A DNA stretch of 64,000 bases from Marsupella aquatica (Eukaryota; Plantae; Marchantiophyta), in the NCBI GenBank assembly GCA_973895155.1, contig OZ316892.1, positions 12,154,238 to 12,218,237 on the forward strand. Reading direction: 5' to 3'. A program made the position numbers and the translations under genes. Under the pieces are notes generated by a model, which was not told where the DNA came from, ran no database searches, and saw only the letters and a list, made by a program, of their open reading frames with translations. This document shows, piece by piece, positions 25,064 through 64,000 of this stretch; within the stretch, counting starts at the first letter, position 1; each line of letters starts with the position of its first letter.

Positions 25064-25070
25064 TATATAA
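25064..25070 (+). promoter_or_regulatory. Putative TATA box for the long ORF
   Basis: CCTATATAAG after a G-rich repeated region and before a pyrimidine-rich leader. Confidence 0.55.
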
Positions 25071-29613: not shown

Positions 29614-30510
29614 CGGTGCAAGGGCGCCATTCCTTTTAGGGAGGGCGGACGTGGAGGGAGGAGGCGTGAGTGGGCAGGGCGGGCGCTGATCTCCAAGTTT
29701 AGGATTAGGATCAGGACCAGGAGCGGCCCTGACACTTAGCTTAGTGGGATTGCGGTTCCACTGGTAGGAGCAACACTTGTGCTCCTGCCTTGCTGTACAT
29801 AGGTAGATTCGGGCAAGTAGATTACTGTTAAGTAGATTAGGCTTACGATGCAAAGAATGGCGGATCCACTACCAGGATAAGTACCTGGGCAGCGGGGAGC
29901 TCAGGGCCTCTTCTTTAGCAAGTTTTTAGTTTGCACCAGCCGGGCTGGGATCAAGTAGTACGAGAAGCTCTCGGTTAGTCATACAGTGACCCTTGTGTAT
30001 ATTCATGTTTCCTCATGCCTAAGAGCTGAATAGAGTTGGCCTCACGGCTTAGTTCGCAGAACTTGTGTATGAGATGTACTGTTTGTATGGCAAGTGCATG
30101 GTATGACTCAGTCAGAATGAGTCATTTTGCTATTTGTGTATCGCATTAACTTGTGTGAAGAGTGCCCACATCAACCAAAAGGAAGGAAAGTAAGCAGGGG
30201 AGTGAGAGTTGGATGTGTCGAGCTGAGAGAGGTCTTAGCGGCTTAACCAAGCCTATTGGGGATCATTCCGGCGGCGGAATCCAAACATACCTAACAAGAC
30301 GGAGGGGAAGACAGGGGAAGGCCTAGATTAGGCCGGCTACGTATCTCATGACCCGATGAAGGATCTGTCCAGTATATGTGTGTAAAATGTTAATAGTAGT
30401 AGTAGAAGGTTAGCAGCGTCCCATGCCGCTAAGCCGCGGAAACGGCCTCGCCAAGCGCGAAACCTGCGGGAATCGGCTTGAGCTGGGGGGTTTCTTGGGT
30501 TTAGGGAGCC

Positions 30511-41773: not shown

Positions 41774-43439
41774 GAAACAATCACAAAAAAATGTCTTTTT
41801 TCGAAACTTCTCACAAAACTCAAAACTCAACACCGCCGCGTAGCCCACGAAGCTAGGAGTCCAATACTGAAAGCCGAAATCAAAATCAAAATTCGACAGA
41901 AAAGTTATTCAAATTTCGGTCGGGGTGGGTAAAACCTTGGGAAACTCCCCTGTTTTGACCACCTCGGAGAATACCCAGTATAACCCGTCGTTGGAATTGC
42001 GATGTGATCGGTGCGCCGCGATGCTAACTCCAGTGGCAACGTCCTCACCGAAAAAGAACCAAAAAAGTTACCGTTCGGCGGACAGAATCTTTGTCGAACG
42101 GCTGAAAAACAGCTCTTTGTTTTTTGGGAATATTCCCGCACAGTATAGCAGGTCTCACAGGGGGCCGTTCCCCCTGTCGGAGCGGTTAAAACGGAGGGTC
42201 ACAGGGCCCAGGACAGCCAATAGAAGAGTCAGCAAGAAAGACAAAAAATTGGCCTTGAAAAGGGGGTGTAAAGGCCCTTTGGCAAAAATACGCCTTAAAA
42301 GCACGACGCGAGGCGGGCCAGGCAGAGTACAGGGATACGGGTGGGGGTAAACACGGGCGGGAAGGGAGGAACGACGGAGCCGCGTACAGGCGGTAGCCGC
42401 CGTGTATAGGCAGAGCTGGGCTGGGGGTCGCGAGTACGTCGTCGCGAGGCAGCGGCCGGCCGTGAGGGAGTTACAAAGGGCGAGGGCCTGTATACGGGCT
42501 CACTTAGGGCCGAGGGGGGCTAAATGCGGCCAGCAGCAGCTGCAAACGCACCGGTCGGCGCTGCGCTGCGCCGTGTATTCAGGGTGCACCGGGGTTTGCA
42601 AAGGTAGGGGGGCGCGGGCCTAGCAGGGGCGTCCAGCGAGCGGGGAGGGGGGGGAAACAAATACACAGGGGGAGGAGTCGGGGCCCAAGTGTGTGTATAC
42701 ACCTCGTATACACACACAGGGACCAAACCCCCTTTAAACGCCAAAAATGACCCCCCCAAGCAAAAATCAGTCACACACCTTAATTGCCGCTGATTTAAAC
42801 GAGAAAAGTGAATGCCGCCAAAGGGATATGTAGCCGAAGTGCACCGACACAGTCTGCAGCTCCAGCAGAGTAAATTATTTCCGCCGCGTCGCCTTCACTC
42901 CGCGTCAAGTACCAATCCGGGCTCAAAACGACCGCCTCGCCGTGATCAAACCGTAGAGCCGTGGCACTTCGCGTCTCTCCCAACAAGTCGGACGTCACAA
43001 AGGGAAACCCGTTTCAGATGAGAACAAGCTCCATAGCTTGTGAAAAAACCTGAACGTCTCCTTCACTCGTCACGACGCACTCGGTAACAACTCGGCAGCA
43101 ATCCAGCTACCAAAACGACCAGCTCGCTTCAACCTTCAACTTGAGCTATAATGTGTGATCCCTCCCGTACCGCACAGCTCACTCCGTTGAAAAATGCAAA
43201 CTCTGGTCTCTCCCCCGAAAACCCGTCGAACACGAATAAAACCTGAACGACGCAAACTTTGATTCCTCCGCACCACAGATACCGATCAGCGAGTTCTAAC
43301 CACCGTTAGAAAGCCCTCTCACTAACCTATCCGCTCAGCCACACACATTCGAGTTTCATGCGACAAAACTCTGAATGTGTCACCGACAATGAACGCTGGA
43401 AAAACCTGTCACGAAAAAACCTCGTCACCTCCCAGGCAT

Positions 43440-43797: not shown

Positions 43798-44503
43798 TGC
43801 ATGTCGACCTTTGGCTCGTGTCCGTTGTGGCCACAATGATGGTTTGGTGCCGGATCACGAGATTTGGGTAGGATGTGCTCAATTTCCTCCGTTATTGAGG
43901 TTAAATTGACAGGTGCTTTTGTATCATAATTGTGCTACACGAGGCTCGCGTAGGATGTCATAATCAACTTATGACTTGCAAATCCCGGATCTTATCACAG
44001 ACACCCATATCACACGGCATGTACTAATTGTCGGGTTGAGGACTGTGGGAGAACAATAGGCGAGGTTGGAGTTGGTTGGTTCCATTCACTTTCCGCACGA
44101 GGCTCGTGTAGGCCAAACTACTCAGCTCTAGGATCATTATGACCTTGGAAAGTGAAAGGTGTGTACTTGTACTGAATGTCACTTTCACTGCAATGGCGCG
44201 CATGTCAACCTATGGCTCGGGTCCGTTGTGGCCACAATGATGGTGTGGTGCCGGGTCACGGGTTTTAGTATCATAATTGTGCCATACATGGCTCGCGTAG
44301 GATGTCATAATGAACTTATGACTTGCAAATCCTGGATCTCATCACACACACCTTTATTCGAGAGGCTTATTTCTCTCCTTCAAGTTATGCTTTGTGATGA
44401 ACTTCTGGCTCAGTCTCCAACATCTCTCTGATCAAATCTTCCTTTTCCCAATTGAGCGTTTGACAACCATTTTGGATCGTGGTGATTTTCCTTAACTTTC
44501 ATA

Positions 44504-44902
44504 ATGGCACATGGGAGACGATTGAGGAGTTCTTTGGCATTACATACGGAGGAGAGTTCTAGAGCATTACAGGCAGAGAATGCGAATGACGAGCGGTCCA
44601 ACTTCTCTATGTGCTTGGAGCCATCCGATAGTTTTGACTCTGGAGTTGCTGCAAGAACAGAAACCATTCCTCCTCTTGGCAACCAAACTGTGGTTAGTCA
44701 TGACAAGACGAATGACCAGGCACCTGTTGCAGATGAGGTGGAGGAGGAACAAAAAGAGCAAGAGAAGAAGCCGACAAAGGCCGCGGAGGAGGAACAAAAG
44801 AGGATCCGTCGGGAGGAATGTCGAACGATGAGGCGTCGTTGGAAGAGGGAGCATTTGGCCACTAGAAGAAAACGTCCCCTTTTGAGACCCTATGCTTTGT
44901 GA
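44504..44902 (+). CDS. Hypothetical charged low-complexity protein (132 aa)
   Basis: ATG-started ORF with E/K/R-rich C-terminus and basic NLS-like end; no recognised domain. Confidence 0.3.
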   Translation: MAHGRRLRSSLALHTEESSRALQAENANDERSNFSMCLEPSDSFDSGVAARTETIPPLGNQTVVSHDKTNDQAPVADEVEEEQKEQEKKPTKAAEEEQKRIRREECRTMRRRWKREHLATRRKRPLLRPYAL

Positions 44903-46164
44903 CTTTAGGGAGACTTTCAAAAATACATGACTCCAAGTTTAGGGGAGTCATTGTTGTTACATTTTATCAACTGATTTTTGGGGGATATTTGTGAAAGTCA
45001 TTCCTACAACTTCTGATAAAGTAGCAATTGTAACACTAGTAGGGCAGTCATATGTAAGTTGAATAAGCTACTCTCCATTACGGCATTCTGAAATAGAGTG
45101 CAAGAAGGATTACATGCACTCTAGACATCACGGAATGTTCCATTTACAACCCTTGACTTGCAACTTGCGGAGTCGGGAGCACTAGGTGCACATAGAAGGA
45201 ATGGGGGTTTAGGGTTGCAAAACTAGTTAAATGTCTTCATGTCAAGAGCATTGTAGCTAGTTATCCTAGCTAGCCTAATTAAACGTGCATGGGAGTACTT
45301 GCCTCTATAATAGTAAGTCTTATGCTGCTCAATGGATTCCTTAGAGTTCATGGGCAACTTTGACAAGAATATTGGGGTGATATCATTTTCAATTCAGGGC
45401 TAAAGTAGTGTCTGGCCCCCATTCTTTGTCCACCCTCCCTAAGTGGCATGTGTAAGGGTTAATTTACAGTTGCGTTCTAAGAGGTTACAGTTGCGTTCAT
45501 TTAATCTTTGCTCACAAAGTGTCGTGTCCAATTTGCTTTAGGGTACTAACATGTGTATCAACGGCTCATGTCAATGCAAAGTGGTCGAGCTCATTGGGTT
45601 TGGTTCACTAAGTGTCACTAAGTGTTAAGGTATGCTTTGTGCGTGAGTGTGCCTTTGGACACGAGTTTAGGGTGCGCGGGTTTTGTTTAGGGTTTAAACA
45701 CGCCAGCAGAGTGCAAAGTTCAGTTCAATGTGCGTGGGAACTCGGAGGGTTTTGTTTCAGAAAAACTCACTTGTCCATTACGGGGACATTCGTCGTGCCT
45801 GAAGGTCGTCACATTGTGCGCAGTCTCACAAAGTGGGGAGTGTGCTTCGCGATCGGGGCAGTTCCTTCGCGTAGGGGAGTTTTGCGCTTGGAGCTTGAAG
45901 GTTTACCTTCAAAGCTCTAGAGCATTCAAGCTGAGAGGGCGACCGGCTTGCGGAGTGGAGAGGTGAGCTGCAGTGGACGACGAGCTCTAGGACTGGGAGG
46001 AGCTGTGGGCGGGCAGGAGCTGCAATTTGGGAGCTGCTCTGGCCGCCGGTCTGGCCGAGGAGCTACGAGCGGAGAGCAGCTGGAGTGGAGCTCGAGCGGA
46101 GTGGAGCTGGAGTGGAGTGCTTCTGTCACACACTGCTGAGGATTGCTACGTAGCTTCAGTTTGG

Positions 46165-46382
46165 GCGGCGGTGCGAGCAGAGGTGCTGAGAGCGGCTCAG
46201 GTGCCAAAGGAGGTGGTGCGAGCGGAGGTGCGAGCGGAGGTGCTGAGAGCGGCTCAGGTGCCAAAGGAGGTGGTGCAAGCGGAGGTGCGAGCGGAGGTGC
46301 TGAGAGCGGCTCAGGTGCCAAAGGAGGTGCTGAGAGCGGAGGTGCGAGCGGAGGTGCGAGCGGAGGTGCGAGCGGAGGTGCT
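46165..46382. repeat. 60-bp / 12-bp GC-rich tandem repeat
   Basis: GGAGGTGCGAGC and GCTGAGAGCGGCTCAGGTGCCAAA units; open in several frames. Confidence 0.85.
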
Positions 46383-48090
46383 ATTGGATCACTGAGAAGG
46401 CTGCAACCTCTCTATCTTATTCCTACTATTTGGCGGTTGCAGTTGGAAGGAGGGTCGAGTGGCGAACATTTTGTCAGTTGAGGACTCAGCTGCGGGTTTG
46501 TCATTTCCTGGAGCTCAATCGCTTGCTACTAAGACTACTGTTGCTGCAATTGCAAGTTGCTTGATCATGAGCTACCTAGCTCCATTGTGAGTTGCCTCCC
46601 TATTCTCCTTGTTCTCCCTGTCTCCCCCTTGCTTGCAGTTACTATCGCCAGGAAGAATGTGTTTGGCCAAGATGCTAGATTGCGACTTGTCTTCTTGCTT
46701 CTAGCTCGTGTATATGCTGGCATCCGTGGGGGTTCCTCGAGTTTGAGTCTGCAGAGGAAGAGTCTATCATAGTCTAATTAAATGTGGGCCATATTACTCT
46801 GGTCAATGAATGAGTTCCCTGGAAATAGAACCTCTCTGATTATAGAGGTGCGATTTGGTCAGAATTTTTTCCCCTCTCATTGTATCCACTGATGCCAACT
46901 CACTTTCATCACCTCAATTCTGAACAATGAGCGTAGTCTCAGGCTCCATACTGCCTATACTGAATGGTCTAGCTGCGATGTCCACCTCGGCTGAAGTGAG
47001 CTCTGACTTGGAGCCTTAACATTTGTGTTCGATCTGTGGGGCTGTTTAGAGTTGGTTCCGTCCAGAAGCTGCTCTACTGAAGTGATAGAGCTCCGGCTTG
47101 GAGGTGGATCTTCACTTTTTTGTGGGTCTGAGTGACTTCTGTCTAGCTGGGCTTAGCTGAGTCAGTAATACATTCAAAAGAGGTGAGTATCCCTGACCAA
47201 CATTTATTTACTCTTGACCACGCCAAACTAATGGCGCTTCAATTTGAACTTTCTAAGTCTGACTGCTGACTCCGCTCCTTAAAACCTACCTTAATTATAT
47301 TCATGTCTTTCTTTTGTGCATGCGCATAATGTCTTTCATTCAGTTTAACATTAAATGTGAGACAGGGCTGCATCCAGCTCTTCTAGATGACAAGAAGGCA
47401 TTGATCAGTTGCTTTTTTATCTGTCCTCACCAAACAAGAAATCTTTCTTACAAGAAACCTATCTTACAAGAAATCCAGCCTGGCCGAGAAGCTGCAAGTG
47501 GGGAGGATGTCTGTAGAAATTTGTAAGGAGTGGTTTGTCTCACAATGCCATTGTTGATGAAACCTTGCTTCTGCTGATGAAACCTTGCTTCTTCTTAATC
47601 CAATGCTTGCTGCCTTGTTACAACGTTTGTCTAGTTGACCACTTCAGTGCCTATTCTTCATTTCCTGTTGTTCCATTTTTGGAAATTTATGCTTAAGGAA
47701 CCTGCATTTCCTTCCCTGTCCCCATGCTATCTCCACTGCACCTTCCACTGCTAGCTATGTTGATTCCTTCCACTGCTAGCTCTAGACAATGATGCAGTCC
47801 AAATGCTGATCAGTCTCACTGGGGGTGCCGGTGCAGACACAACTCGCACTGTGTGATTGTAGTTTTGCTTTGTCAGGACGAATGTGTTTGGCTAAGATGC
47901 TAGATTGTGGCTTATCTTCTTGCTTCCATCTCGTGTATATTCAATTAGTAGAAGCTGGGAATGAAGTGAAAATTGAATTTCCTTATATTAAGCATCCTGA
48001 CCTAGAAACTCAATACATAAACTCCTGGAGTCCCTCGGGACATAAAATGAGCCAAATTGTTTCAAAATTGGGAACCTGCACCCGCACTAC

Positions 48091-48432
48091 TCAAACAAAT
48101 GTGTTGGGCTTGGTGGCCTTGTAAGTCGTCTTTAGCTTTCGCGATGGAGGTTGAATCTTGCGGTACGTCAAGGGGAACTTGATCTTTGAATCATGGAACT
48201 GCTTGGTACTTTCTCGCTTGCACAGAGAGACAGGAACTGTTGTAGTCTTGATGATCTGGATGCAAGGGAACCAAACTCTATGACAAGAAGCCATCTCATC
48301 ATACATCTGCTCTACAACGATGTTCAATGTGGTATCACGATATTTCTTGTACATGTTGGGATAACCTGTACGACTCTGATACCTCACCCAGATACCGAAG
48401 TTCTTAATTGTGGTGGGCTTCTTTTCGAAGAT
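48091..48432 (-). pseudogene. RPL18A: 60S ribosomal protein L18a (eL20) last-exon fragment
   Basis: CAG|[24 protein letters not shown]...[10 protein letters not shown]...[13 protein letters not shown]; conserved residues altered (GYH>GYP, YKE>YKK, RHRVR>CHRVW); upstream exons not found. Confidence 0.9.
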
Positions 48433-49440
48433 CTGGTAGACACATTATTCAGCATTTGCTAACTTCGAAACTAGAAGGGTAACACATTAAACAACAGAGA
48501 AACTCACAACATCCTCCTTTGGTCCTTCAGAGTCTGTACTTTGATTATGAAGTTTGACTGAGTTTCTGTTTACTGAAAGAATGTGACTGTGTAAGAGTTC
48601 CGTTTGGCAGTGGATTGGTTGAAGCACTTCATGCTAGTGTGTTGTCTACAGCTCTTCAACCAGCTTTCGTCTTCCTTGTCTTTCACCACTTACGATGACA
48701 TCAATTCAGCTAAGACCATAGAAGGTTCCAAAGCATCTAACTTGTAAAATTGCATTCTGTTACATCAAGGACTAAGGTGTTGGGTGCCAAAGGAGACAAC
48801 ACAACAAACACGCTGAAAAGACTTCAGGACTGGGTTCAACAAGGTAGTGAAGGTGCTTAGAGCCTAGTAAGTATGCATTCTGTATCTTTCTCTGTTGATG
48901 TGAGCTTGTGCATAATGGGAGTTGTAGTTGGCAAGAGTTCCAAATATGAATAGATCCAGAAGTATGTGATCATGTACTTGCTCTATAAAGTTCTGAAGAT
49001 ATAAGCATTTTCTGTTAGACCAGGCAACTTGGGAGTTGGTAAGTGTCACCTGCATCTGAGGGGCTACACCGGGGGCATCAGTGGAGGTTCACTTGCACAA
49101 CACGACAACCAGTGAATTTTCTCTCTGCTGCAACCTGCAAGGTGAGACTTTCGGTCTTTCTGGATGAAAAAACAGGATTTTAATATGATTGATATACATG
49201 TCCGTCGAGAATATGGGTTTATCACCAAGCTCTTTGTCTTAGGAAACTCATAAACTCAGAATCAAATATGTACTATGCACGTTTCATGCTATGTGTATAC
49301 TATGACCTGTAGTTGGAACCAAGACAATGAGTGAGAACTGATTAGTTTAGGTGGTTGCTGTTGGCGAGGCAAGTCGACCTCCTGCTCACCTTGCTCATCA
49401 AAGGACGTGAACAGAGGACATCACAACGAAAGCAACACTT

Positions 49441-49890
49441 ATGGTGAGGACCCGCAACGCTGAACATGTGCGACTTGCACGCAAGGCAGAGATGTTGCGC
49501 CTTGAGTATGTCAGACTTGGGATCCTTCCAGCCCAGTCTGCATGGTACTTTGAGTACCCTGTTGTTTCCAGGAACAACTACAGCCGGCCTCTACCTGCTT
49601 CAGTACCCTTCCCGACATCCTTGGTATTTGTGTCTCTTGTACATGACCCGCCACAAATTAGGTGCCAAGGGTGTGTACACAGTTGCCTATATGACTGTCC
49701 TGCCTGTAGGGCTTCTGGCCCAGAATTGGATGACCGTTCTCTTGGATGCCGATTTTTGCACAGAGCACAATGTATCATCTGGAACCACTCACCATCCTGC
49801 AGTGTGCCTGGTGATGTCACTTGTCCTGCCCTCCCAGACCCCACCACCGGTGACTTTGGTGTCTACACATGTTTGGATCACATGCTCTAG
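49441..49890 (+). CDS. Cys/His-rich hypothetical protein, copy 2
   Basis: Near-identical protein to 61576-62025; C..C...C..C and H...C motifs. Confidence 0.65.
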   Translation: MVRTRNAEHVRLARKAEMLRLEYVRLGILPAQSAWYFEYPVVSRNNYSRPLPASVPFPTSLVFVSLVHDPPQIRCQGCVHSCLYDCPACRASGPELDDRSLGCRFLHRAQCIIWNHSPSCSVPGDVTCPALPDPTTGDFGVYTCLDHML

Positions 49891-50662
49891 AGGACCACTT
49901 GTCACACCGCATGCACAGACCAGATACCATTGACCTATAGCTTAACACTCTGACTTCAACACAGAGGATATTTACTTAAAATTTTGATGTATGAGCAATT
50001 TTGGGTCCAGGGTTTAGGGTCAACAGTACATAACTTATATCCTATTATGCCTGCACTAAGCAAAATATCCTAATTTAAGAGGCTAGCAAACTCGCATAAA
50101 AGTCTCTATTGAAAGACTGCTTTCATGACTGCTTTAACCTGGTGAACATTGCAACGTTCAATGAATTAATGGGCCATGTGATAACCTGTAAAATGTGATT
50201 TATGCATCACTTATTTGTCTCAGCCACTATCATAGCCTATTTAGGATGTATAAATTTCAACCCTTATGACACTGCTTCATACCAATCCTCTTCGAAGAAT
50301 GCGCGTTTTACATGTCACGACTATTGTATGTGATTCAAATGCATGAAATATTGTTGCAGATCTCCTTTGGTGAATCATAGCCACAATTAAAATTGAGGTG
50401 TTGGTGGAGCAATTGTATTAGGGGATCAGGTTTGTGTGTGGGCTCAACATACCAAAAGTATGTCTGCTCTGCATCCTTGTGTGGCCATTCCAATTCATTG
50501 CAGTAGCAAATGCCTTTGTACCTTAAATGCTAAATATATTTTACTTTCTGTGCAGTCTGCTAAATTGTAGAGTCTATCTAAATGCCTTTGTACCTTAAAT
50601 GCTAAATATATATTACTTTCTGTGCAGTCTGCTAAACTGTAGAGTCTATCTCATGCGCAGGC

Positions 50663-51343
50663 ATGGCATGACCTAAAATTCAAGCCAAAAAGCATGTGAC
50701 AGAGGTGAGAAACACAGGTGTACTTGGGGCAGATGCTACTAACTTCTCTGCAAGTCAGATTTTCTAGAAGGCAGCTCATTGTTGTGCCATTTGTGACGAT
50801 GGTGGGGGCCTGGTCATTTGTGAGGGCCCTTGCATGAGGCATTTCCACCTCAACCCGGAGTCTGACCTTGCTGCAGAAAACAACTGTCCAGGGGTGGGCC
50901 TCCCGTCAACACACCAGGGAGACTGGATGTGCACTGATTGTTTGGAGAAGCAGGCTAAGTGTGCACAGTGTGGGAAGTTGGGGTCCTATGAGGGCTCTGT
51001 TGATGCTGCAGCAAATGTTAGGAAATGTCCAGACCGTTTTTGTGTGAGATTTTTCTGTTTTGAGTGTTTGCCTGCTCATGCCACAGCTTGCCCACTTCAT
51101 AGGTGCAAGGCATGTGGTGAGCATGATCATGAGTACTGGACTGACATAGTCCACTGTGCTAGGTGTCCCACCATGTGGCACTATCATTGCCTGAAAGATC
51201 GTCAAGCAGAGGGTTATGCTTGTGATAGAGAAATCTATGATCACTCTGCACATGGTGTTGATCGATGGATATTTTATTGTCATCGCCATGCCATTGATCC
51301 TACCTCGCGCACTCCTGTGAGAGATCACATATCTTGGCTGTGA
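50663..51343 (+). pseudogene. EDM2-like composite PHD protein, copy 2 (two premature stops)
   Basis: In frame with the 226-aa copy but CGA>TGA at codon 3 and CAG>TAG at codon 35. Confidence 0.85.
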
Positions 51344-52261
51344 AGCTGAACATTGTACATGCACAGTGCACCTGATGTGGATGTACTATTTTTTGAGATT
51401 GCAGAGATTCCAATTTTGAAAAGGAGTTGGGTACACTAGTAGAAACCGGGGGGTATTTAGACCCCATTAAACGACTATTCAGTACCGTATAGGACTTGGA
51501 AACGACTGGGAAGGACTCCAGTCCTTTATAGGACTGCGAGTCGTATGTTTTGTTACTATAATCAACTGAGTCCTTTATAGAACTGGTTTATAAGTCGTTT
51601 AATAGACTGGATTTTCAGTCTATTTTAGTCTTTGTGTGGGTAGCTTTGGTGAGTCGTTTTCAGTCTTTTATGGGCTGCGATGGTGAGTCGTTGGGAACGA
51701 CTAAAAAGGTTATGGAGGGTAGTCTTTAAATATACTTTGTGGGGTATGTATAAGTCTTTCATGTCAACTGGATATGAGTGATGAAGACCCCACTATACTA
51801 CTTGGAATGAACCCACTCTTGTGCACAAATAACATATTGCATTCATGTTTTATTGTGTACTTGGAATGAACTCACTCTATAAGTTCACCATTCATTATGT
51901 TAACATTAGAATACATAGTTTCAGAAAGCCATCTTCTATACCATGTACACTAATATGAATTCACAGATTCAAACTTCATAGACTACAAAGAAGGTCACAA
52001 AGTATTCCTCTATACCATACACACTAATACTGAAATGATACAAAACAGATTCAAGTATCATAGACAATCACCATAGAGCCATAGTTTGACATCAATCACT
52101 TGTTTCATACATACAGAATTCAGAAATATCAATGTCACACACAACGGCTCCTTCATCCTCTTTACCAAATGGAAAAATTGGTACAGATATGTCTTGGATC
52201 TTTCCAAGGCAATGTCAAAATGTGACACAATTCACATGATTCTATCTACACTTGCATTCAG

Positions 52262-53950
52262 TCACTGCAGACTAACACACTCTGATGGCCAAAGCACAAG
52301 AGATCCTACTGCATCTGCAATTATTTCCTGAGGTGGATCATCGTCTCTATTCGGAAATGGCAAATTACAATCAGATACAATCACTGTAGTCAACAACACT
52401 ACTACATGGTCATCCGGGACCACTTTGCCATGGAATTTTGCATGGTCCGGTCGCAAAATGCCTGTACCCACACATACCTGCGAGTCATCCTCCCATGATA
52501 GAAGATTATGGACTGGCTCTGCTGTGGCTATCACCTCCACCTTACCCTGGCTGTTTTTCTTGGCTTTCCTGGGTGGCTTATACATGACATTATTCATACC
52601 TTGGTTGCGAGTCATGACTTTGGCACGAGTGTTTTGTGCTGGTGATCGAGAATTGGCTACACTCTTCTTCAAAGAATCTGCATCCATATTTGACACTTCT
52701 GATTGTGTAGCAGGATTTCCCTGCGACATCATCTCAGTATCTGCCAACATTGTACTTGCTTCAATTGAAGCATCTACAATCTTACTTGCATCCAATGTTG
52801 CTCCCAAGTTTTGACGTCGCTTCACCTTGCTCCCACTTGGTTGAGAGTCTGTCAACTCTGCATCAACTACAATTCAGTGTCATGTCCAACATAAGTCAAT
52901 CACTCATCACATGTGCTAAATGTACATGTCACCAACCACAAAGTTGTCACTATCTCCTTACCATTATGAACAGCCTTCTTCCCCTTCTTTGCCATTGCCA
53001 TATGCTCCATGTCTGCTTCTGTTGATCAATAAACACACCACAATATTCAAGTTGAATCTATTAACCACTGAATTGTTTCTCAACATTCATATAGAGGAAT
53101 TTAAAGCATCAGCTTACCTGATACCTCCTTGGCTATGGTCACTGAGGCACTGGGCACATCTTCTTCATTATTGCTCTTTGAATCACCTGATACATCAATC
53201 ATGATGTCACTTCAGATCCCAGTTCATCCAACCAGTTCTTACAGAAAAGATTACCTCCAACCGGCTTAAGCTTCACAAAACTCCATGCACTTTTCAAATG
53301 TAATGTACTGGATCATAGCAGGTTACCTGTCTCAGCAACCTTCTTGCCCTTTTGCTTACTGATTACAGGGTCCTTCTCTGCCTCCACTCTTCCTGCATTC
53401 AAACCATTCACTCAATTCATGAAAACTTACTTCTAACATTTGAACATAGGACACAATGAACAATGGGCCGGTGTCATTTCCATACCTGTGTCAGATTTGC
53501 CAATTCCCTTTTTTGTTAACAAGGGCACACTTTGTACAATGTTGCCCTCATTGTTTGGTTGGGAACCACCCAATTTTTCAATCACAAGCTTGAAATTAGA
53601 TTCCACTGATGCAAGAAGGTTTGCTACAGATGCCTCCACAATATCCAAACGATCAGCCAATTTACTTTCCACTCGAGGGAGTCCACACTCTAATGACTTC
53701 AACCGTTCACACATCTCTGTGAGAGTTGTAACAGTTCACTGTCATAACACAACTTACATATCTCAGATAACTGTCCCCAAGAACTGGTTGCTTACTTCCT
53801 ACTACATTTCTTTCTGATGCTCAAGGCCAAATAGTCACAGAACATACAGAATTACAACATAATCACCTGTTTGGAAGTTACACTTGTCACCTCACTCCTT
53901 TGTTTCATGAACTCCTCTCTCACTTCTTGTGCTGATGGTTCTTCACCTAT
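52262..53950 (-). CDS. CACTA ORF2/TnpA-like multi-exon gene
   Basis: Coiled-coil exon 53433-53714 and terminal exon with En/Spm TnpA C-terminal-type motif VGTGIL..FHGKVVPDDHVVVLL..LPFP..IADAVGSLVLWP. Confidence 0.7.
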
Positions 53951-54041
53951 CCTAAACATCATTCCAGGCAGCAATTCCCGTTCTGTGACTCTGTGTAGGT
54001 AGTCATCCTCAACCTCATACTTGCCAACCGCCAGCTGTTGC

Positions 54042-57000
54042 CTATTGCAAATCATCAACCTCATCATATTCCATTTGCCCAGGTTCATCATATGTCTCTC
54101 TCAATGTTAAGGGGATGTAGTCAGTCCCTGCCCGAGTTGGAAGTACAGTCTCATGACTAGGATGCTCGAATGCAGCATGGTCATCCAAACTGAACTCTAC
54201 TTTACTTCCATCCATCCGCCTGTTCCGTGCTTGGCTATGGCATACCACCCTCCAGCCATGTGACTCCTCCACATCTGCAAAGAAAGCCTGTTCAACTTGG
54301 CTAGGGAAAACAAAAGGCTCAGACCATTCTGGTACTCTGGACCTAAAATTGGCCAACAAGAACCCATCATGATCACGCTTCATGGTGGCCCTTGGTCTCT
54401 GCCACTCTGATTTCACCCATGATCCCTTCATCAATATCACTGGGACACTTGTGTTACCATAATTCAACACCCAAATGTTGGTCAACTCCCCCACGTAACC
54501 CATCTTCATCCACCCCCTCTGTTCTTCAGAGGTTCTCTGCTCAAACACAGAAATCAAACCACAATCATATGATACACAATGGTCACCCTGCTCATCCCTC
54601 ACTCGATAATGATTTCCATAAGCTCTCATCCGTTTGTAGGTCAGAATAGACAATCGTGGTGGCACAGATAGAAGATACAAATCCTTCTCCATATCTGGGT
54701 GATGTCTACTATGCTCTCGAATTGTCACCCGAATCCACTGCTCGAACTGTGGGAAGGGATCCTGCTGCCTAGAGTGTGCAGCTTTTTGCATATCATATTC
54801 CCTGCAATATGAGGTACAGGCATAGTTAGGTCTAAACAACACATGACAACCTAAGATCACCCTTGGAACAGACAAGAAGCATCACAACAAAGGCAAGTCA
54901 ATTCAATCACTCACCTCCACCATGGTTGGATAGGCTCTGTGTTTGCCAGCACATATGAATGAGCCTTGTCTCGAATCGCAACAGGCAGCTGAACAGCACG
55001 TCCCACACCTTCAACAACCTCGCCACTCACTCCATCATCTTCACCAGATTTCCAAACTCTTGTCATAGCTTCACCAGACCCAGCCATGTACTCTGTTAGG
55101 AATCCCAACGTCTCATCCTTAATGTACCCCAATGCCATGGAAGCCTCTGGCCTGTAGTATGTTCTCACATGACCTTTCAACAACTTCATGTATCGCTCCA
55201 TAGGGTACATCCATCTGGTACTGACTGGCCCATACTGCCCTAGCTCTTCTACCACATGGATTAGGAGATGAGTCATAACATCAAAGAAAGCAGGGGGGAA
55301 GTATATCTCCAAGTCACAGAGGACATAAGCAGCATCCTGCTTCAACTGCTCCAATCCTTGGGGATCCCACACTTTCACACATATATGGCGAAATACATTG
55401 CACAGTCGAAGAATGACATTACGGACTGGTTTCTGCATGAGACCTCTGAGGCATAGGGGCAGAATGTGCTGCATCAACACATGGTAGTCATGTGTTTTCA
55501 TACTGCCAAGTTTATTCTTTGTAATATGCTTCTTGAAGGCACCAGCATAGCCAGAGGGCACTTTCAGACAGCTCAATCTATACAAGAATGTCTTCCATTC
55601 ATCCTGTGTGCACACATAGGGAGCTTGGAACTTGAGAAGTACATTGGGATTGCTTGCATGGGGCTTCAACCAAAGGTGAGGGCGAATCCCCTTCTGTTGC
55701 ATATCAGCTCGAACTGCTCCTGTATCTTTCTCACCCGACAAGAACTTCAGCAAGCTCTCACAAATATTTTTCTCAATGTGCATGACGTCCACATTGTGTT
55801 TGCTGGGCTCGAATTCCTGCACTCCACAAAGCAAAGAATTCAACAACAGAAACACTAATTAACCACATAGGAGGATTGTAACCAACATCAATCCACCATT
55901 GCTCCAATCTAAAATTGCAATCATACAGGGGCTGGAGGCTAAGTACATTACCCTCCAGTACTCCAACTCCAAGTCCATCAAGGTCTGTCTTTTCACACCG
56001 TGTTTCACCACTGGATCCTCAGGTTCTCGATCAGTGGCACTTCTCTTGTCCCAATCAGCCTTCCTGGCTGCCCACCTCAGGACTTGCTCTCTGGTGATCC
56101 TCTGTGGTGGGCCACGAAGCTCTGTTTTGTTGTTGAAGTGTGCAATTTGAGACCGTGTGTGCCTGTAAGGATGATCAACAGGCAGATACCTTCTATGCCC
56201 CTGAAATTTCATACTGTGCAGGGCATGCGACCACTCACTTGTCACATTTTTCCCACATGGTGTGCACCCCACATAGCCCTTTGTCACTCGTCCAGATATG
56301 ATGCCATGGCCTGGGTAATCTGCTATATCCAGCAAACAAATTGCATGCAGTCTAAAGGGGCTGGGTCGAAGAAGCCCCTTCAGAACATCATGGGTTAACA
56401 CCCCTTCTATCCACAAAGTCTTCCACTCTTCCACTGCTGGAGCCAACATGATATCTATGAATTGCTCGGTCACAGAAGCTGGTCTAGGGATTAACAGCAC
56501 CATCATGACAAAAAACCTCTTTGTAGTCATCCATGGGGGAAGGTTGTAATTTAGCAGCGTAACCGGCCAACATGAATAACGGTTGTTTTTGTCTCCAAAT
56601 GGGTTTACTCCATCCAGTGATAGACCAAATCGAAAGTTCCGCTTCTCTGCAGCAAACTGTGGCCACCTCTCATCAACAAATTTCCAATGGTTGGAATCTC
56701 CAATGTGACGCTGCAGGCCATCACTACTCTTGTTATCAGGAGTCCATGTCATCAGCTTGGAAATGGCAGGGCATCTAAACAGACGTTGTAGTCTAGGAAT
56801 GAGAGGAAAATGACGAAGAACCTTGGCAGGGTGTGTACATTTCCCTACATTCTTGTACCTGTGCTTACCACAATGAGGGCATGTCAATTTATCTGCATGC
56901 TCTTTGCGAAAGAGAACACACCCATCAGGGCATGCGTCAATAGACACATAGTTCAGCCCAAGGTTAGACATCAATTTCCTAGCCTCGTACATATTTTTTG

Positions 57001-57742
57001 GAATTGAATTACCATCTGGTAACATATTTCGGCGCAGGAAGGTCAACAACTCTGTCACAAATATATTGGGAACATTGTGATTGCCACAGATGTTCAACAA
57101 CAACACGACAAAACCCAGCTTGGAGCAGTTCGACCCCTCGTAGATAGGAATGCAAGCTTCTTTGATGTGTTTTGGGCCCCCAAACACCCACTCCCTCTCT
57201 GCTGCACCTTCCCCAATGTCAAAGTCAGGTTCAGCTTGGCTGTCGCCAATGTGTGGCTGCGGTTCATTGTCCTCTTCTGATTCCACTGTGTCGTAAAAAG
57301 CATCAAGGTCTTCAAAAATCTCTTGAACCATTCTTGGGACATCCATCCCACCGTCCTCAGTGACTGCCTCTACATCTCCATCTTGGTCATCCACGTTCTC
57401 ATGTTGGACCCCAGGACCATCCTCTGCACAGTCTATGTCCTGCTCTACGTAGTCTCTACGCCTAGCTGTATTAGAATCCACAAAGTCAGCTCTCCACTCT
57501 TCATCAGAGGAGTCTTCTTCTGCTGGTACATTCCAAACCCTCCACCGAGGGTGCCTTTCATGCCGCAGCAGGTGAAGGTGCACAGTGTTCAAACTCAACG
57601 ACTTGAATCCTTGGCACTGTGTGCATGGGCATCTCATCCTCCTACTCCTACCTTGGGCGGCCCGGGCTTGTTCACGCATCCACAATTTAGAATCATGATG
57701 CCTAATCCTAAATGGGTTGTGAAGAGGCAACCTTGGAGCCAT
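54042..57742 (-). CDS. CACTA transposase TnpD (3 exons: 57742-55952, 55816-54915, 54801-54042)
   Basis: CPCTQC transposase-associated domain, IDACPDGCVLF, LSLDGVNPF, ADYPG, DVMHIEKN, FPPAFFDVMTHLLIH, RWMYPMERYM, EPFVFPSQVEQAFF; canonical GT-AG introns keep the frame; no internal stop seen. Confidence 0.93.
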
Positions 57743-58068
57743 CACTATACACACGCACTCAGCACCCTGTCATTTTATTATGCAAGTGAAAAATACACTT
57801 CCTGTTAAGGATTTCACCCCCGACTGTACTTGCCAAAATACGTAACGTTCCAAAAAAACAAAAAAACAAAAAATATAGGTGCCTGAGTCATGTACCTATT
57901 CTCAAGTGAATGAGACAAAATTCCTAAATGTTTGAGGGTGTCAACTCCTCCGCTGTCCTCACATGTACTGCCTCTGCACGTACATCCATGACCATATCAG
58001 AGTCCAATCATGTATAGTCATAGACACAGGTGCCAGGTGCGAGACCGGTGTGAGATGTCCTCATCTTA

Positions 58069-58638
58069 CTACCACATCAAATACGGATACCAATCCTGTT
58101 GTCGATGCCACTCAGCCCTGAGGTACTCAGGCATGTACATTAAGTCATCAAGGTCTAAACCCTGCTCATGCCATGGTGGTCTTCGATCCGTGCCTACAAG
58201 CAGTGGCAGCAGTGCCCTCCATGGTGCACATGTTGCTACCAAGTCCCTCCACTGGGTACTAATTAGTCTATATTTGCAGATATCTTGTGCGCCAGACACC
58301 ACAAGAACCCTCGGCCAGACATGTGTAAGAACTATATCATCTGCCAAATCAGGCAACAAGGAACCACCTACAGCATCGTGCTTGTCTAACTCATCTGCTA
58401 AAAAGTAAATGTCCTCTTCCGACTGTGCATCCTCATTCACCACAGCATTCACAACACATCCAAGGTCTGCAGGCATTATCTCGGATGGAGCTACACTCTG
58501 TCTGGTTGCCAATCCACACAAGTAAGCCCAAGCAATAGCCATGCACGATGCAACCCGTAGGAGGACCCTACATAGGGCCTGACGGTCTGGAAGAGGCAGC
58601 ATACCCACCAAAGTCTTCAGCCAAACAGAGCCCAGCAA
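58069..58638 (-). CDS. F-box-like protein
   Basis: SLLPDLADDIVLTHVWPRV...KYRLISTQWRDLV fits the plant F-box pattern LLPGLPDD....C..R....R.VS..WR.LV; start uncertain. Confidence 0.6.
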   Translation of the reverse strand: MLGSVWLKTLVGMLPLPDRQALCRVLLRVASCMAIAWAYLCGLATRQSVAPSEIMPADLGCVVNAVVNEDAQSEEDIYFLADELDKHDAVGGSLLPDLADDIVLTHVWPRVLVVSGAQDICKYRLISTQWRDLVATCAPWRALLPLLVGTDRRPPWHEQGLDLDDLMYMPEYLRAEWHRQQDWYPYLMW

Positions 58639-58778
58639 GTAGATTCACAGTCACACCCCACGCAGCAGGAAACAACAATCACTTCAACTGCGACCAACCA
58701 TGACAAGATGAGTTAGTTCAAGGATCACATTTATTACAAAATTGTGATTTATACAAAAATATGAGGGACTCCTACTCC

Positions 58779-59642
58779 TCACTCTCTCCCACCTTTGCTA
58801 AGCATACATCTCCGCTGAATCTTGGAGGGCCAGGCCTCAAAAATATCAAAGTCCCAAGCATTCTGTCGCTTCCCTCTAGCTGCTGATTCCAGAAGCCAAT
58901 CAGGGGAAAGCACCCAAAGATTGTTGTTCATGACAAAATCACGCACTGTTGTCTTAAAGAATTTTCTGCATATTTTCATGTATGACAGACCTACAACATG
59001 AGTGGAGGTTTCTGTTAGACTCTCCTCCACTGTCCCACCTAGCTCAACAACTATAGACTTGTACAATCTGCACTTAGTCTCCCCAATTCCTTCTTCTGCA
59101 AATACCACACTGAACCCCTTCATAATGGTATTTCTCTCCTTGCCATGCTCATTCAATATAGCATCTGCACGCATAGGATGGTGTCCTATGTTGACAACAG
59201 GTCCATATTGGACAGAAGCAAAGTTGGGTTTCTCTGCCACTGCTTCATAGGCTTCCTTTTCAGCCAAAGCCTCTGCAGTGGCCTCCTCACTCTCCCACAA
59301 CTCATATTGCTCAGTACTCTGTACACACCTATGTTTAACAGAATCGGTCAGCCAAGAGACTTCAACTACTTTTAGACCTTGGTTGGTAATGGCAGAATCA
59401 ATGAAGGACCATGACCACTTGTTCATCACATCCAGCCATGTCCCCGCAACAACATGTGTAGTCTGTGGAGTGATGTCCTTGACTTCAGTCCCATGGAACT
59501 CTGAGAATCGTTTTTGTACGATTGGCCAACTCACTTGGGTGAACCCATAGTGGCCAGGAATCAAAATGGCTTTGATTCCAGCCAACAGAGGCGGGTGGTC
59601 AACCTTTGTACGTTTCCTAGAGGCCATGTACACACGGGCCAC
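58779..59642 (-). CDS. Tandem BRCT-domain protein (287 aa)
   Basis: Two repeats, each with G.V....T...THVV and V...WL..S, resembling the BRCT of plant DNA polymerase lambda. Confidence 0.8.
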   Translation of the reverse strand: MARVYMASRKRTKVDHPPLLAGIKAILIPGHYGFTQVSWPIVQKRFSEFHGTEVKDITPQTTHVVAGTWLDVMNKWSWSFIDSAITNQGLKVVEVSWLTDSVKHRCVQSTEQYELWESEEATAEALAEKEAYEAVAEKPNFASVQYGPVVNIGHHPMRADAILNEHGKERNTIMKGFSVVFAEEGIGETKCRLYKSIVVELGGTVEESLTETSTHVVGLSYMKICRKFFKTTVRDFVMNNNLWVLSPDWLLESAARGKRQNAWDFDIFEAWPSKIQRRCMLSKGGRE

Positions 59643-60225
59643 CTAATCACTGCAGACCGGAAGATAATGCGTTCACCTGATAATCGGAGGGCCCTTAAAA
59701 TGCTGCGTTTATAACTTGGTCCAGTCCAGTCGTCTGGTGAGTCTCTGCTCCGATTCCAAATGGGAGAAATATTGGGACAAACGTACTAGACACCTGCAAG
59801 CATGCACCTCATAGTTTGAATATGTGCCTTCACAATATTGAAGGTGACAAGTGCAATTGTTTTGTGATGCCACATACAGATGTTGTAAATGGGCAGACAT
59901 TCAATGACAATACAAAATGTTGGTACACTTTAAGGGAATTTTCGCAAATTAAATAGCCTTGTAACTTATATGCTCATAATGAGAAGTCCTGATTTAATTT
60001 AAGCAGTGTCATGTAAGTCGTGATCAAAATGATTGCAGAGTAAAAAAGGTTCCTAGAAGGCTTAAGGGGAGTTTTTGAAGGCATGTACCCAGGAACAAGT
60101 AATGAACTTAGGGTACTTGTTGCCTAAGCATCCTCTCCTACAGAGGTCCTTCTTCTCAAAATTGGAATGTCTGCAATCTCCAAGGTATCCACATCAGGTG
60201 CACTATGCATGTACATTATTCAGGT

Positions 60226-60906
60226 TCAAAGCCAAGAAATGTGATCTCTCATGGGAGTGTGCAAAGTAGGATCTATGGCATGGCGATGACAATAGAAGAT
60301 CCATCGATCAACACCATGTGCAGAGTGATCATAGATGTGTCTGTCACAAGCATAGCCTTCTGCTTGACGCTCCTTCAAACAATGAAAGTGCCACATGGTG
60401 GGACACCTAACACAGTGGACTATGTCCACCCAGAAATCTTCATCGTGCTGACCACATGCCTTGCACTTATGAAGTGGGCAAGCTGTGGCAAGATCGGGCA
60501 AACATGAAAAACAAAAGAACCTCACACAATATCTGTCAGGGCATTTCCTAACAAGTGGTGGAGCATCAACAGAGCCCTCATAAGACCCCAACTTCCCACA
60601 CTGTGCACACTTAGCCTGCTTCTCCAAACAATCAGTGCACATCCAGCCTCCCTGGTGTGCTGACGGGAGGCCCACCCCTGGACAGTTGTTTTCTGCAGCA
60701 AGGTCAGACTCCGGGTTGAGGTGGAAATGCCTCATGCAAGGGCCCTCACATATGGCTAAGCCACCACCATCGTCACAAATGGCACAACAATGAGCTGCCT
60801 TCTGGAAAATCTGACTTGCGGAGAAGTTACTACCATCTGGCCCAACTACACCTGTGTTGCTCACCTCTATCCCCCGCTTCTTGGCTCGGATTTTAGGGCG
60901 TGCCAT
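60226..60906 (-). CDS. Stand-alone EDM2-type composite PHD finger protein (226 aa)
   Basis: CAICDDGG....CEGPCMRHFH, C..C....C..C..LGS, CPLHKCKAC, CVRCP..WH..CL, FYCHRHAIDP...TPMRDH: the ordered motifs of the EDM2 PHD module; basic N-terminus. Confidence 0.85.
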   Translation of the reverse strand: MARPKIRAKKRGIEVSNTGVVGPDGSNFSASQIFQKAAHCCAICDDGGGLAICEGPCMRHFHLNPESDLAAENNCPGVGLPSAHQGGWMCTDCLEKQAKCAQCGKLGSYEGSVDAPPLVRKCPDRYCVRFFCFSCLPDLATACPLHKCKACGQHDEDFWVDIVHCVRCPTMWHFHCLKERQAEGYACDRHIYDHSAHGVDRWIFYCHRHAIDPTLHTPMRDHISWL

Positions 60907-61575
60907 GCCTACGCATGAGACAGATAGTACAATTTAGCAGAGTGCACAGACAATACAATTTAGTGCAGTGTACAAAAAGTACAGTGTAGCATATGGACTA
61001 GAGTGGCAATTGCTACTGCAATGAAATGTTCACACACATGTGCAGAGTAGACATACTTTTTGGTTTGTTGAGCCCACACTAAAAACTGATCCCCTCGTAC
61101 AATAGCTCCACCTACACCTCAATTTTGTGGCTATGATTCACCAAAGGAGATCTGCAACAAGATTTAATGCATTTGAATCACATATAACAGTCGTGACATG
61201 TAAAACAGGCATTTTTTGAACAGGATTGGTATCAAGCAGTGTGATCAGGGTTGTAATTTATACATCCTAAATAGGCTATGATAGTGAATGAGACAAATAA
61301 GTTAGGCATAAATCACTTTTTCCAGGTTATCACATGGCCCATTAATTCCAGTCTTTGAAAGGAGACTTTTAAGTGAGCTTGCTAGCCTCTTAAATTAGGA
61401 TATTGTACTTAGTGCAGCCATAATAGGATAAGTTATGTACTGTTGACCGTAAACCCTGGACCCAAAATTGCTCATAATTCAAAATCTTAAGTAAATATCC
61501 TCTCTGTTCAAGTCAAAGTGTTAAGTTATAGGTCAATGGTCTCTGGTCTGTGCATGCGGTGTGACAAGTGGTCTT

Positions 61576-62025
61576 CTACAGCGTGTGATCCAAACATGTG
61601 TAGACACCAAAGTGACCGGTGGTGGGGTCTGGGAGGGCAGGACAAGTGACATCGCCAGGCACACTGCAGGATGGCGAGTGGTTCCAGATGATACATTGTG
61701 CTCTGTGAAAAAACCGACATCCAAGAGAACGGTCATCCAACTCTAGGCCAGAAGCCCTACAGGCAGGACAGTCATACTGGCAACTGTGCACACACCCTTG
61801 GGCCCTAATTTGTGGCGGGTCATGTACGAGAGACAAAAATACCAAGGATGTTGGGAAGGGTGGAGAAGCAGGTACAGGGCGGCTGTAGTTATTCCTGGCA
61901 ACAATTGGGTACTCAAAGTACCATGCAGACTGGGCTGGAAGGATCCCAAGTCTGACATACTCAAGGCGCAACATCTCTGCCTTGCGTGCAAGCCGCACAT
62001 GTTCAGCATTGCGGGTCCTCACCAT
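61576..62025 (-). CDS. Cys/His-rich hypothetical protein, copy 1 (149 aa from the conserved ATG)
   Basis: Open and conserved in both diverged copies. Confidence 0.65.
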   Translation of the reverse strand: MVRTRNAEHVRLARKAEMLRLEYVRLGILPAQSAWYFEYPIVARNNYSRPVPASPPFPTSLVFLSLVHDPPQIRAQGCVHSCQYDCPACRASGLELDDRSLGCRFFHRAQCIIWNHSPSCSVPGDVTCPALPDPTTGHFGVYTCLDHTL

Positions 62026-64000
62026 AAGTGTTGCTTTTGTGGAGTGTCGTGTGTTCACGTCCTCTGATAAGCACCTTCGATCAGCAAGGTGAGCAGGAGC
62101 TGTACTTGCCTCACCAACAACAACCAACCTTAAATTATCAGTTCCCACTCACTGTGTCATTCCATTGGTTCCAGCTAGGGGTCACAATGTAAACATAGCA
62201 TGAAACACTCTTAATCAACTTGCTTACAAACTACAATATCCAGAAAGAGTGAAAGTCTCACCCTCCAGTGAGCAGCAGAGAGGTAGTTCACTGGATGTGT
62301 TGATGTGCAGTTAAACCTCCACTATTGCTTACTTCTGGTGTATGCTGCTCAGTCGAAGACATATTAGTAGCAGCAAATTGCAAATAATGGCCATAAGCAA
62401 ACCGTGAGAGTTTGCAGAATGCTACGACAACTATTCATCCATCACAACAGTGCTCCACAGGAATGAAACCAAGCAAAATTTGGTGACCTCGGCCAATGAC
62501 AAGGCCAATGTAGTTCACAATCCTTGACCGATCAGGATATGGATTGGAATTACAATTAGTCAGCTCTTCTTCTTTGTTTCCTAACTCTGCGGGAAATGAG
62601 CATGACAAGGGAATTCTCTGAGAAATAGAAGTGCACAGGGAAAATGAAATTGACTCATTGAGCTGCGCAAGATGACCACTACAGCATACTTGGACAGTAG
62701 GTTCCGCAATCCATAAAATCCCCGTCTGACGTATTTAAGCAGTGCAATTTAAGCAGTCAGATGCTACATAGCAATTAAGCACAAAGGCTACTTCATGTCT
62801 GTTTACATAGAATTTTGGATTGAAGTAATGAGAGCTATACATTTAAACTTACGGTGCCAACTCCGTCAGTAGTTGCTGAAAATGGCATGGGAAACACTGG
62901 TATGACAGGAACTCAAGGAAACATTTGCGGCAATGTCTTCACAGGAAAAGAAGAATTGCTAAGTACAGTATTCTTAATAGTAGTTTCGTTCTAATTCTGA
63001 AATCTACACATAGGACGGAAACCCAGGACATTTCTCATGAAAATTGAAGATCCATTCGACAACTCCATGACAGCCTATTCCGCATTGTGTCCGTCCCATG
63101 CAAGCAAGGGGTGTTCAGCCGAGCTTAGTCTAACCACGAATGATTGTTCTGGAAGCAGTTGCGATAATGTTTTGGTAATTTTCTCCTATATCCAACTCAG
63201 TAGCTCACAAACATGGCATTGGACCCATTAAAAAATTATACTTGCCATCATTCTCAACTGTATTACATGGCCCACACTGCTGATGTCCCTGACTCTTAAG
63301 GGAAACTCATCTCCTGGGCCAGCAACATCTCAGATTCTACAAAAATGAGAAACTATGAAGACTTATTGAAGTCATATCCTGTGATTGTAGCATGTATGAT
63401 TTGCTGGGACTACAAGCAGTTCTAGATCCTGCTGCACTTTATATACAACAGCAACCTGAGCTACATGAACTTGTTTTTAATAGACGTGCGTTTGACCACG
63501 GCTACAACTCCAAAACAATCAGTCACCCAATCAAATCATAACAAACCCACCCGCAAGCTGAATGTAGAGGATAGAGATAGAGAAAATCACCGGGGCAATG
63601 AAGTTGGATCACAGGGTGCAAAACTAGTACTCAACAGGGTAAGACCGATCACAGCAAACAAAGCACAGAGCTAGACCAACAAAACTCCAGCAAAGATAGT
63701 GTCATGTCCATTTATTTGTAGGGAATGAAGTCGGATCGCAGAGTGTAAAACCAGTAGGGTAAGACAGATCACAACAAACAAAGCTAACACAACAAGCACA
63801 TAGAGGAACAAAACTCCAGCAAGACATAAATTAGACCTCGCAGCTTTTTGACTAGCAAAGGGAGATAGTCTACGCTTTCCATTGCTGGTCACAGCGCGAC
63901 AGGCAATCAGGATGATGCCATGCCGAGTAGAAGAACAACAAAGCATTCTATAAAAAGCATTGAGGTTGGCGTTATAGTAAAAGTGGTAGTACTTCCAGTA

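Follow-up and report, generated by a model that had tools for sequence, protein, structure and literature searches.

EDM2 binds H3K9me2 and has a role in full-length transcription and read-through (PMC9910501, PMC7529245, PMC10852260, PMC5364540), and its similarity to NSD1 has been described (PMC3776765). More generally, PHD fingers recognise the H3 tail (PMC5415848). With regard to mobile elements, VANC is a described plant transposon-borne anti-silencing cargo (PMC10398659), the chromatin-reader domains that transposons are known to have recruited are for the most part fused chromo or PHD domains (bioRxiv 10.1101/2021.11.30.470311), and CACTA elements have been reported to gain extra domains and fragments (PMC8978399, PMC13317346). 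Histone mimicry, e.g., by the ARKT motif of G9a and the ARSK motif of influenza NS1, has also been documented (PMC6028506).

In this study we analysed a window of 64,000 nucleotides of the Marsupella aquatica contig OZ316892.1 (the term refers to this whole stretch of DNA). The EDM2/NSD-type PHD gene located in it, hereafter copy R, is cargo of a multi-copy CACTA DNA transposon with an open transposase frame. We propose that it is a selected accessory gene, the product of which would be a putative H3-tail reader on the chromatin of the element, favouring expression or read-through against host silencing; the probability of this reading is roughly 0.45.

Similarly to VANC of the VANDAL (Mutator-like) elements, copy R is an accessory gene on a plant DNA transposon which is proposed to counter silencing. 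However, VANC binds specific DNA repeats (PMC10398659), whereas the product of copy R, a gene of a CACTA element, is homologous to histone readers. The chromo- and PHD-fused transposon proteins resemble it in that a mobile element has recruited a chromatin-reader domain, but the reader of copy R is a free-standing EDM2-type gene. The usual extras of CACTA elements are Peptidase_C48 and Transposase_24, and the accessible part of the paper describing them (PMC8978399) does not mention an EDM2-type PHD. Moreover, no EDM2-type gene in a transposon was found in the titles and abstract openings of the literature searched, in which subscription journals are thinly covered. Copy R is a predicted chromatin reader of the TE-recruited kind and an EDM2 homolog, not a full member of the family.

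The PHD gene and its zinc ligands

60226-60906, minus strand: intact stand-alone EDM2/NSD-type triple PHD gene of 226 aa, copy R (ORF, Pfam, BLASTP, ligand alignment)
60909-60911, minus strand: candidate 3' splice acceptor 2 nt upstream of the ATG, present in copy L too (sequence)

Translation of 60906-60226 (-) gave an uninterrupted ORF of 226 codons from ATG to stop, which encodes a triple zinc-finger protein of 226 aa. Pfam detected three NSD/EDM2-type PHD models in order (E 1e-5 to 6e-3), although all three matches were below the curated cut-offs. In BLASTP, residues 41-225 aligned with residues 225-432 of Arabidopsis EDM2 (P0161) at 29% identity (E 3e-25), and the matches that came next after the stand-alone relatives were EDM2-like and not unrelated PHD proteins. 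The RFD and methyltransferase-like (ELP) domains are absent from the ORF, as judged by Pfam, BLASTP and its length. Thus, the sequence-only reading, which had recognised an EDM2 module of which only the PHD part is kept, was right in both respects. It had also described the ORF as intronless. This is true of the frame itself, but an acceptor-like YAG site lies 2 nt 5' of the ATG in both PHD copies, and the PHD ORF may be spliced onto an upstream exon. The CpG observed/expected ratio within the ORF is 0.28, which points to a methylated past of the gene.

The conservation of zinc ligands was assessed in 26 alignment columns, namely those in which 85% or more of a set of 20 EDM2-like proteins from hosts have Cys or His. 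Cys or His was retained by copy R in 25 of these columns; when compared with Arabidopsis EDM2, 24 residues were identical, one was changed from His to Cys and one was lost. The equivalent of EDM2 H316, the His ligand of the second finger, is Cys in copy R and in all eight members checked of the clade of stand-alone PHD-only proteins to which copy R belongs. The likeness to Arabidopsis EDM2, a component of the ASI1-AIPP1-EDM2 complex, therefore comprises a homologous PHD module, the same ligand pattern and a C-terminal tail motif. In contrast to EDM2, copy R is encoded by a transposon, lacks the RFD, acidic, methyltransferase-like and proline-rich regions, has a basic leader in place of the acidic stretch before PHD1, and its second finger is about 19 residues shorter. 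The PHD1-3 module of NSD1-3 matches the same Pfam models as copy R. However, NSD-like matches scored below the EDM2-like ones, the match to NSD2 ended at residue 174 of copy R, and the C-terminal tail motif was present in none of four NSD-like proteins.

All 29 proteins examined from outside the stand-alone clade (25 EDM2-like and 4 NSD-like) have Asp or Glu among the six residues preceding the first PHD Cys, but none of the eight clade members does. In PHD structures, an acidic residue just N-terminal to the first PHD Cys contacts unmethylated H3K4. Since this residue is missing and the second-finger His is replaced with Cys, the histone readout of copy R may differ from that of EDM2, and the H3K9me2 specificity of EDM2 is not to be presumed. 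At the same time, the PHD1-internal acidic residues that align with those of H3-binding PHD fingers such as AIRE, in which they have a role in H3 binding, are retained. This retention speaks against the idea that the protein has lost histone reading and serves as an adaptor, which would bind a host protein (e.g., EDM3/AIPP1-like) or a transposon protein together with the BRCT and F-box-like cargo. Such an adaptor is suggested by the loss of the pre-PHD1 acidic residue, by the BRCT and F-box-like ORFs in the same element and by the several protein partners of EDM2 (PMC7529245, PMC10852260); we consider it improbable. In the accessible parts of the literature, no passage was found on the PHD module alone recruiting EDM3/AIPP1.

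The AlphaFold model of copy R, built on a 14-row alignment, had a mean pLDDT of 77.5, with residues 1-24 disordered. Its fold matches were PHD/PZP modules (BRPF1, JADE1 and NSD1/2/3) with low TM-scores of 0.30 or less, and at these scores (TM ≤0.30) they included the H3-tail-bound modules JADE1 PZP and NSD3 PHD5-C5HCH. When the PDB was searched with the protein sequence, NSD2 was the best multi-finger match (E 0.03) and no EDM2 structure was returned. At 226 aa, the protein represents a natural minimal EDM2 module that could be useful for structural and binding work.

The host CACTA element and its cargo

44860-44875, plus strand: 5'-terminal CACTA repeat of the left element, which carries copy L (sequence; contig start)
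49441-49890, plus strand: left-element copy of the 149-aa Cys/His-rich ORF (sequence comparison)
50663-51343, plus strand: second PHD copy, copy L, interrupted by nonsense codons at positions 3 (50669-50671) and 35 (50765-50767) of the frame (sequence)
51434-51447, plus strand: terminal inverted repeat of CACTA type marking the 3' end of the element of copy R, followed by subterminal repeats (sequence)
54042-57742, minus strand: TnpD-type transposase with Transposase_21, DUF4218 and DUF4216 (Pfam)
58069-58602, minus strand: cargo ORF with a weak F-box match, E 0.085 (Pfam)
58779-59627, minus strand: cargo ORF that contains two BRCT stretches at E 6.5e-14 (Pfam)
61576-62025, minus strand: 149-aa Cys/His-rich cargo ORF directly upstream of the PHD gene (ORF)

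On the minus strand of the right element, the 149-aa ORF is followed by the PHD gene, the BRCT ORF, the F-box-like ORF and TnpD, the last of which has 1150 open codons after removal of two predicted GT-AG introns (55951-55817 and 54914-54802). The starts of the BRCT ORF and TnpD are preceded by acceptor-like YAG sites 20-25 nt upstream, and the acceptor-like sites would fit one spliced transcription unit for the cargo and TnpD. The BRCT and F-box-like ORFs might represent a host-interaction cargo suite. The 149-aa ORF, which lies directly 5' of both PHD copies, had no Pfam or Atlas match, but two relatives with 53-55% identity share its basic N-terminal start; between 61576-62025 and 49441-49890 its dN/dS was 0.25 (p 5e-4). 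Short ORFs without a Pfam match were also observed downstream of TnpD at 52262-53735 (-); by their position, they are probably exons of a TnpA-like gene.

A 2.1-kb inverted homology connects 49281-51426 with 62206-60149 at 84% identity. The CACTA terminus at 51434 is situated 8 nt past the end of the copy L homology, at a distance of about 90 bp from the stop codon that ends the copy L frame. Copy L is thus just outside the terminus of the right element, and within the left CACTA element starting at 44860. We also considered whether both PHD copies could belong to one element with terminal arms of 2 kb, and rejected this because this CACTA terminus is located just inside the left arm; the contig depths in run X1, about 400 on the left and about 1900 on the right, are against it as well.

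Contigs of sequencing runs were compared with the window, four runs over 57600-64000 and two runs over 44000-58000. Among the 12 runs listed, ten contained part of the window and five at least half of its words; these five come from three studies with three organism labels, and a top run may be the source of the window. For X1, depths of 1767-2011 with 0-4 differences (at least 99% identity) were recorded for the long contigs listed between 53360 and 60613, where the transposase, the F-box and BRCT ORFs and the PHD gene are located, whereas the contigs from 44860 onward, in the left element, had depths of 376-440, contig depth not being equal to copy number. One X1 contig starts exactly at the terminus 44860. 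The X1 bin depth decreased about 5-fold at 62736, from 961 to 209, and in run X5 the region 44000-47735 was nearly absent and depth was low past ~62500. These data fit two multi-copy CACTA families with a PHD gene, one inserted directly behind the PHD gene of the other. The location of copy R inside the right element is indicated by the uniform depth from 51434 to ~62735 and from the collinearity with the left element; of the termini of this element only that at 51434 is in view, its 5' end being beyond the window. The description of the PHD gene as transposon-borne is supported: it is accompanied by a transposase, a CACTA terminus and uniform contig depth.

The sharp depth drop lies at ~62735-62757, and two contigs match the window from 62757 onward, probably because the right element is interrupted here by another repeat. 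The left element carries a fragment of ribosomal protein L18a at 48091-48444 (-) (Pfam E 1.8e-13), an amplified captured piece of a host gene with high contig depth in both X1 and X5. Two further CACTA termini, nested and of the same two types as those at 44860 and 51434, were found at 10886 and 11375 (-), and they adjoin a tandem array of ~580-bp and 83-bp units at ~5300-10500.

The insertion of the right element into a related CACTA element, together with the second nested pair of the same terminal-repeat types at 10886/11375, could also be explained if the PHD module served to guide the transposase complex to a certain chromatin state, e.g., heterochromatin. Chromodomains play this part for some Gypsy integrases, and PHD and chromo domains are the commonest TE-fused chromatin domains, tethering being one of their known uses (bioRxiv 10.1101/2021.11.30.470311). 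However, the PHD gene is a separate ORF without fusion to the transposase, and in a window so dense in repeats, little weight can be given to two nested insertions. Targeting of this kind is unlikely.

Comparison of the two PHD copies

Over codons 36-226, copies R and L differ with a dN of 0.068 and a dS of 0.263, and the resulting dN/dS of 0.26 (bootstrap 95% CI 0.13-0.50; Fisher p 2e-6) was obtained from a single pair of copies of which one, copy L, is broken. This implies that copy R is a maintained gene rather than debris. The dS of the PHD pair (0.26) was higher than the intergenic divergence (0.10) and unequal between the halves of the gene (0.11 and 0.38), which suggests that recombination or CpG mutation may have inflated it. 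Among the six contig variants listed inside the copy R ORF, four were synonymous. In the leader region no selection was seen (dN/dS 0.80, CI 0.22-3.96). The sequence-only reading had reported two copies with conserved Cys/His ligands and presupposed purifying selection. Selection of this kind is now supported by the dN/dS and its p value, and copy L keeps 36 of the 38 Cys/His residues of copy R; the second copy does exist at 50663-51343, but its frame is interrupted twice by stop codons and the CACTA element around it is not that of copy R.

The two nonsense changes of copy L would be expected if the PHD gene were a neutral passenger, i.e. a captured gene fragment that had been amplified with the element and was now decaying. 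Captured fragments are frequent in CACTA elements (PMC8978399), and the L18a fragment of the left element is an ordinary capture. Nevertheless, the dN/dS of 0.26 and the preservation of 24 ligand columns, with a shared start and end, across relatives that are just 36-54% identical render a passenger highly improbable.

Relatives and origin of the module

Of 118 candidates from a word-index search, five proved to be related proteins; they are 217-245 aa long and 38-82% identical to the copy R protein, and four end on the same residue as it does. Among 1.84 billion representative sequences, 242 matches were obtained; of the 150 listed, the top seven were short PHD-only proteins and most others were EDM2-like. 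The RFD domain was detected in 8 of the 34 relatives scanned. Named relatives came from Arabidopsis, Marchantia, Riccia, Calypogeia, a Mesotaenium-labelled record, Chlorella and Tetraselmis. The short PHD-only proteins are 36-82% identical to copy R and mostly share its start and end; some of them are partial or frameshifted, as expected of transposon copies, linkage to a transposon being known within the clade for the copy R/L family alone.

These proteins formed one clade on a long stem both in a quick tree, for which 140 proteins were retained after 15 short ones had been dropped from a set of 155 (support 96), and in a careful tree of 33 proteins, from which 10 of the 43 selected rows had been left out (100/99). 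In the free tree the clade was joined weakly to NSD-like proteins (77/83). However, AU tests did not reject any of the three alternative placements, i.e. with the methyltransferase-less liverwort proteins (p 0.37), with all streptophyte EDM2-like proteins (p 0.37) and with seed-plant-type EDM2 (p 0.17). The C-terminal tail motif, the pattern of which was written after inspection of the alignment, was shared by 8 of the 9 members of the clade and by 19 of the 21 EDM2-like proteins from streptophytes, but by none of 9 NSD-like or chlorophyte proteins, and this distribution favours a streptophyte EDM2-like donor. With respect to the kinship with host EDM2/ELP assumed in the sequence-only reading, the EDM2-like homology is upheld, whereas the tree places the clade firmly neither inside EDM2 proper nor elsewhere and singles out no donor.

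Methyltransferase-less liverwort EDM2-like proteins (CAM6087769.1, KAL3685775.1) carry the EDM2-type module and have several motifs in common with the clade, and the short grass-like proteins P0031, L001 and L003 resemble copy R in having this module without the methyltransferase-like domain. Unlike copy R, these liverwort and grass-like proteins lie on separate branches and are apparent host genes. The N-terminal regions of the liverwort proteins are long, and the frames of L003, L006 and L007 are interrupted in a manner that introns would explain. The occurrence of PHD-only forms on separate branches indicates that truncation to the module happened more than once. Further PHD-only EDM2 paralogues resembling grass host genes (L001, L003-L007, P0031, P0046 and P0053) were noted; they look like the outcome of an independent truncation to the PHD module.

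The metagenome scan yielded nine loci from 221 pattern matches, all of them distant host-type EDM2-like sequences (25-46% identity) and none from the stand-alone clade. The scan of viral sequences for the PHD protein was negative (0/42). No longer fused forms of the close relatives were detected among 430 candidates, which is a weak blank, since the representative search did find long EDM2 proteins.

The histone H3-like leader

60874-60906, minus strand: basic leader of Met + 10 residues with 5/10 identities to histone H3 1-10 in register (sequence)

Directly after the initiator Met, the leader of copy R, which the sequence-only reading had called NLS-like, matches H3 1-10 at A1, R2, K4, A7 and K9. 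Among the 351 Met sites of the window, that of copy R itself is the sole one to reach five of ten Met-anchored identities; in other matches 2 of 2253 Met sites reach this level, as compared with 5 of 22 clade members. In addition, 11 of 19 leaders scored better than shuffled versions of themselves (p<0.05), and as a family the leaders exceeded permuted H3 orders (p 7e-4), the test having been devised after the match was noticed and the sequences compared being related. Among 16 anchored leaders, A7 and K9 were each present in ten and positions 5-6 were variable. On these grounds the leader is a possible histone H3 mimic: after Met clipping it could be bound or modified by the host readers and writers of H3K4/K9 and so act as a decoy, or it could auto-inhibit the PHD pocket of its own protein.

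We regard this reading as conceivable but doubtful for several reasons. The same 16 leaders have T3 in only two cases, R8 in four and S10 in none, so that most leaders lack the ARKS/T motif seen in known K9 mimics. When the PDB was searched with a profile built from ten leaders, no chain, not even one of H3, was matched at E<=10. Moreover, the leader is disordered in the AlphaFold model, its dN/dS of 0.80 between the copies gives no sign of selection, and a plain nuclear-import signal would be basic too. Several liverwort and algal EDM2-like proteins (P0020, P0036, P0038, P0040, P0014, P0017 and P0097) also start with Met-Ala-Arg, an H3-like beginning that is absent from most seed-plant EDM2 matches. 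As these are non-seed host proteins, part of the leader match may be inherited, and the Met-Ala-Arg start is possibly an ancestral auto-regulatory motif. Like the known mimics of G9a and influenza NS1, the leader is a short basic H3-tail-like motif (PMC6028506); unlike them, it stands at the N-terminus of a transposon PHD protein, mostly lacks R8 and S10 and is a candidate mimic. If it is a real H3 mimic, histone mimicry would be extended from viruses and G9a to plant transposons.

Possible role of the PHD gene

According to the H3-tail reader reading that we prefer, a plant EDM2-like gene would have been captured long ago and cut down to its PHD module. The gene would be expressed, and the module would read H3 tails on the element's own chromatin and help to keep the CACTA element expressed despite host silencing, to the benefit of the element. 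Four cargo ORFs precede the transposase on one strand, several of them with acceptor-like sites before the ATG, and a single promoter is supposed. With such a promoter, the transposase mRNA would need read-through of proximal poly(A) sites in methylated DNA, the kind of read-through that is the job of host EDM2. More speculatively, the H3-like leader might tune the reader by filling its own PHD pocket or, alternatively, might engage the host H3K4/K9 enzymes. If the proposed role holds, histone marks and the choice of the transcript 3' end would provide a second anti-silencing route beside the DNA-recognising VANC.

The sequence-only reading had suggested that the gene either helps the element to be transcribed through its own heterochromatin or competes with host EDM2. 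These are different hypotheses, since a decoy of EDM2 would oppose the host activity that promotes full-length transcripts over heterochromatin. The missing pre-PHD1 acidic residue and the position of the clade, which is not placed inside EDM2 proper, weaken a direct transfer of the Arabidopsis EDM2 function. The suggestion is plausible, although somewhat over-transferred from Arabidopsis. A stronger version, in which the EDM2-derived free-standing reader and the H3 mimic together form a counter-silencing device hijacking or jamming the host machinery of heterochromatin read-through, appears rather doubtful to us; if true, a reader-plus-mimic device would be distinct from the DNA-binding VANC proteins.

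Other features of the window

Ulp1-type peptidase (C48) and NIF phosphatase-like ORFs at 15404-17477 (-), beside a long basic ORF at 19286-20962, are probably the cargo of another transposon. ORF pieces with DUF7869 (E 3.8e-30) at 34662-36142 (+) likely belong to a different transposase type. The GC-rich block (50-61%) at 24000-32300 (+), with long coiled-coil ORFs devoid of clear Pfam matches, is probably a retroelement accessory region. Copia-type retrotransposon ORFs (gag, integrase and RT by sequence appearance) were observed at 37498-41935 (-) and 12646-13925 (-), and LTR-like direct repeats of ~300 bp at 36946 and 43453 accompany Copia-type ORFs.
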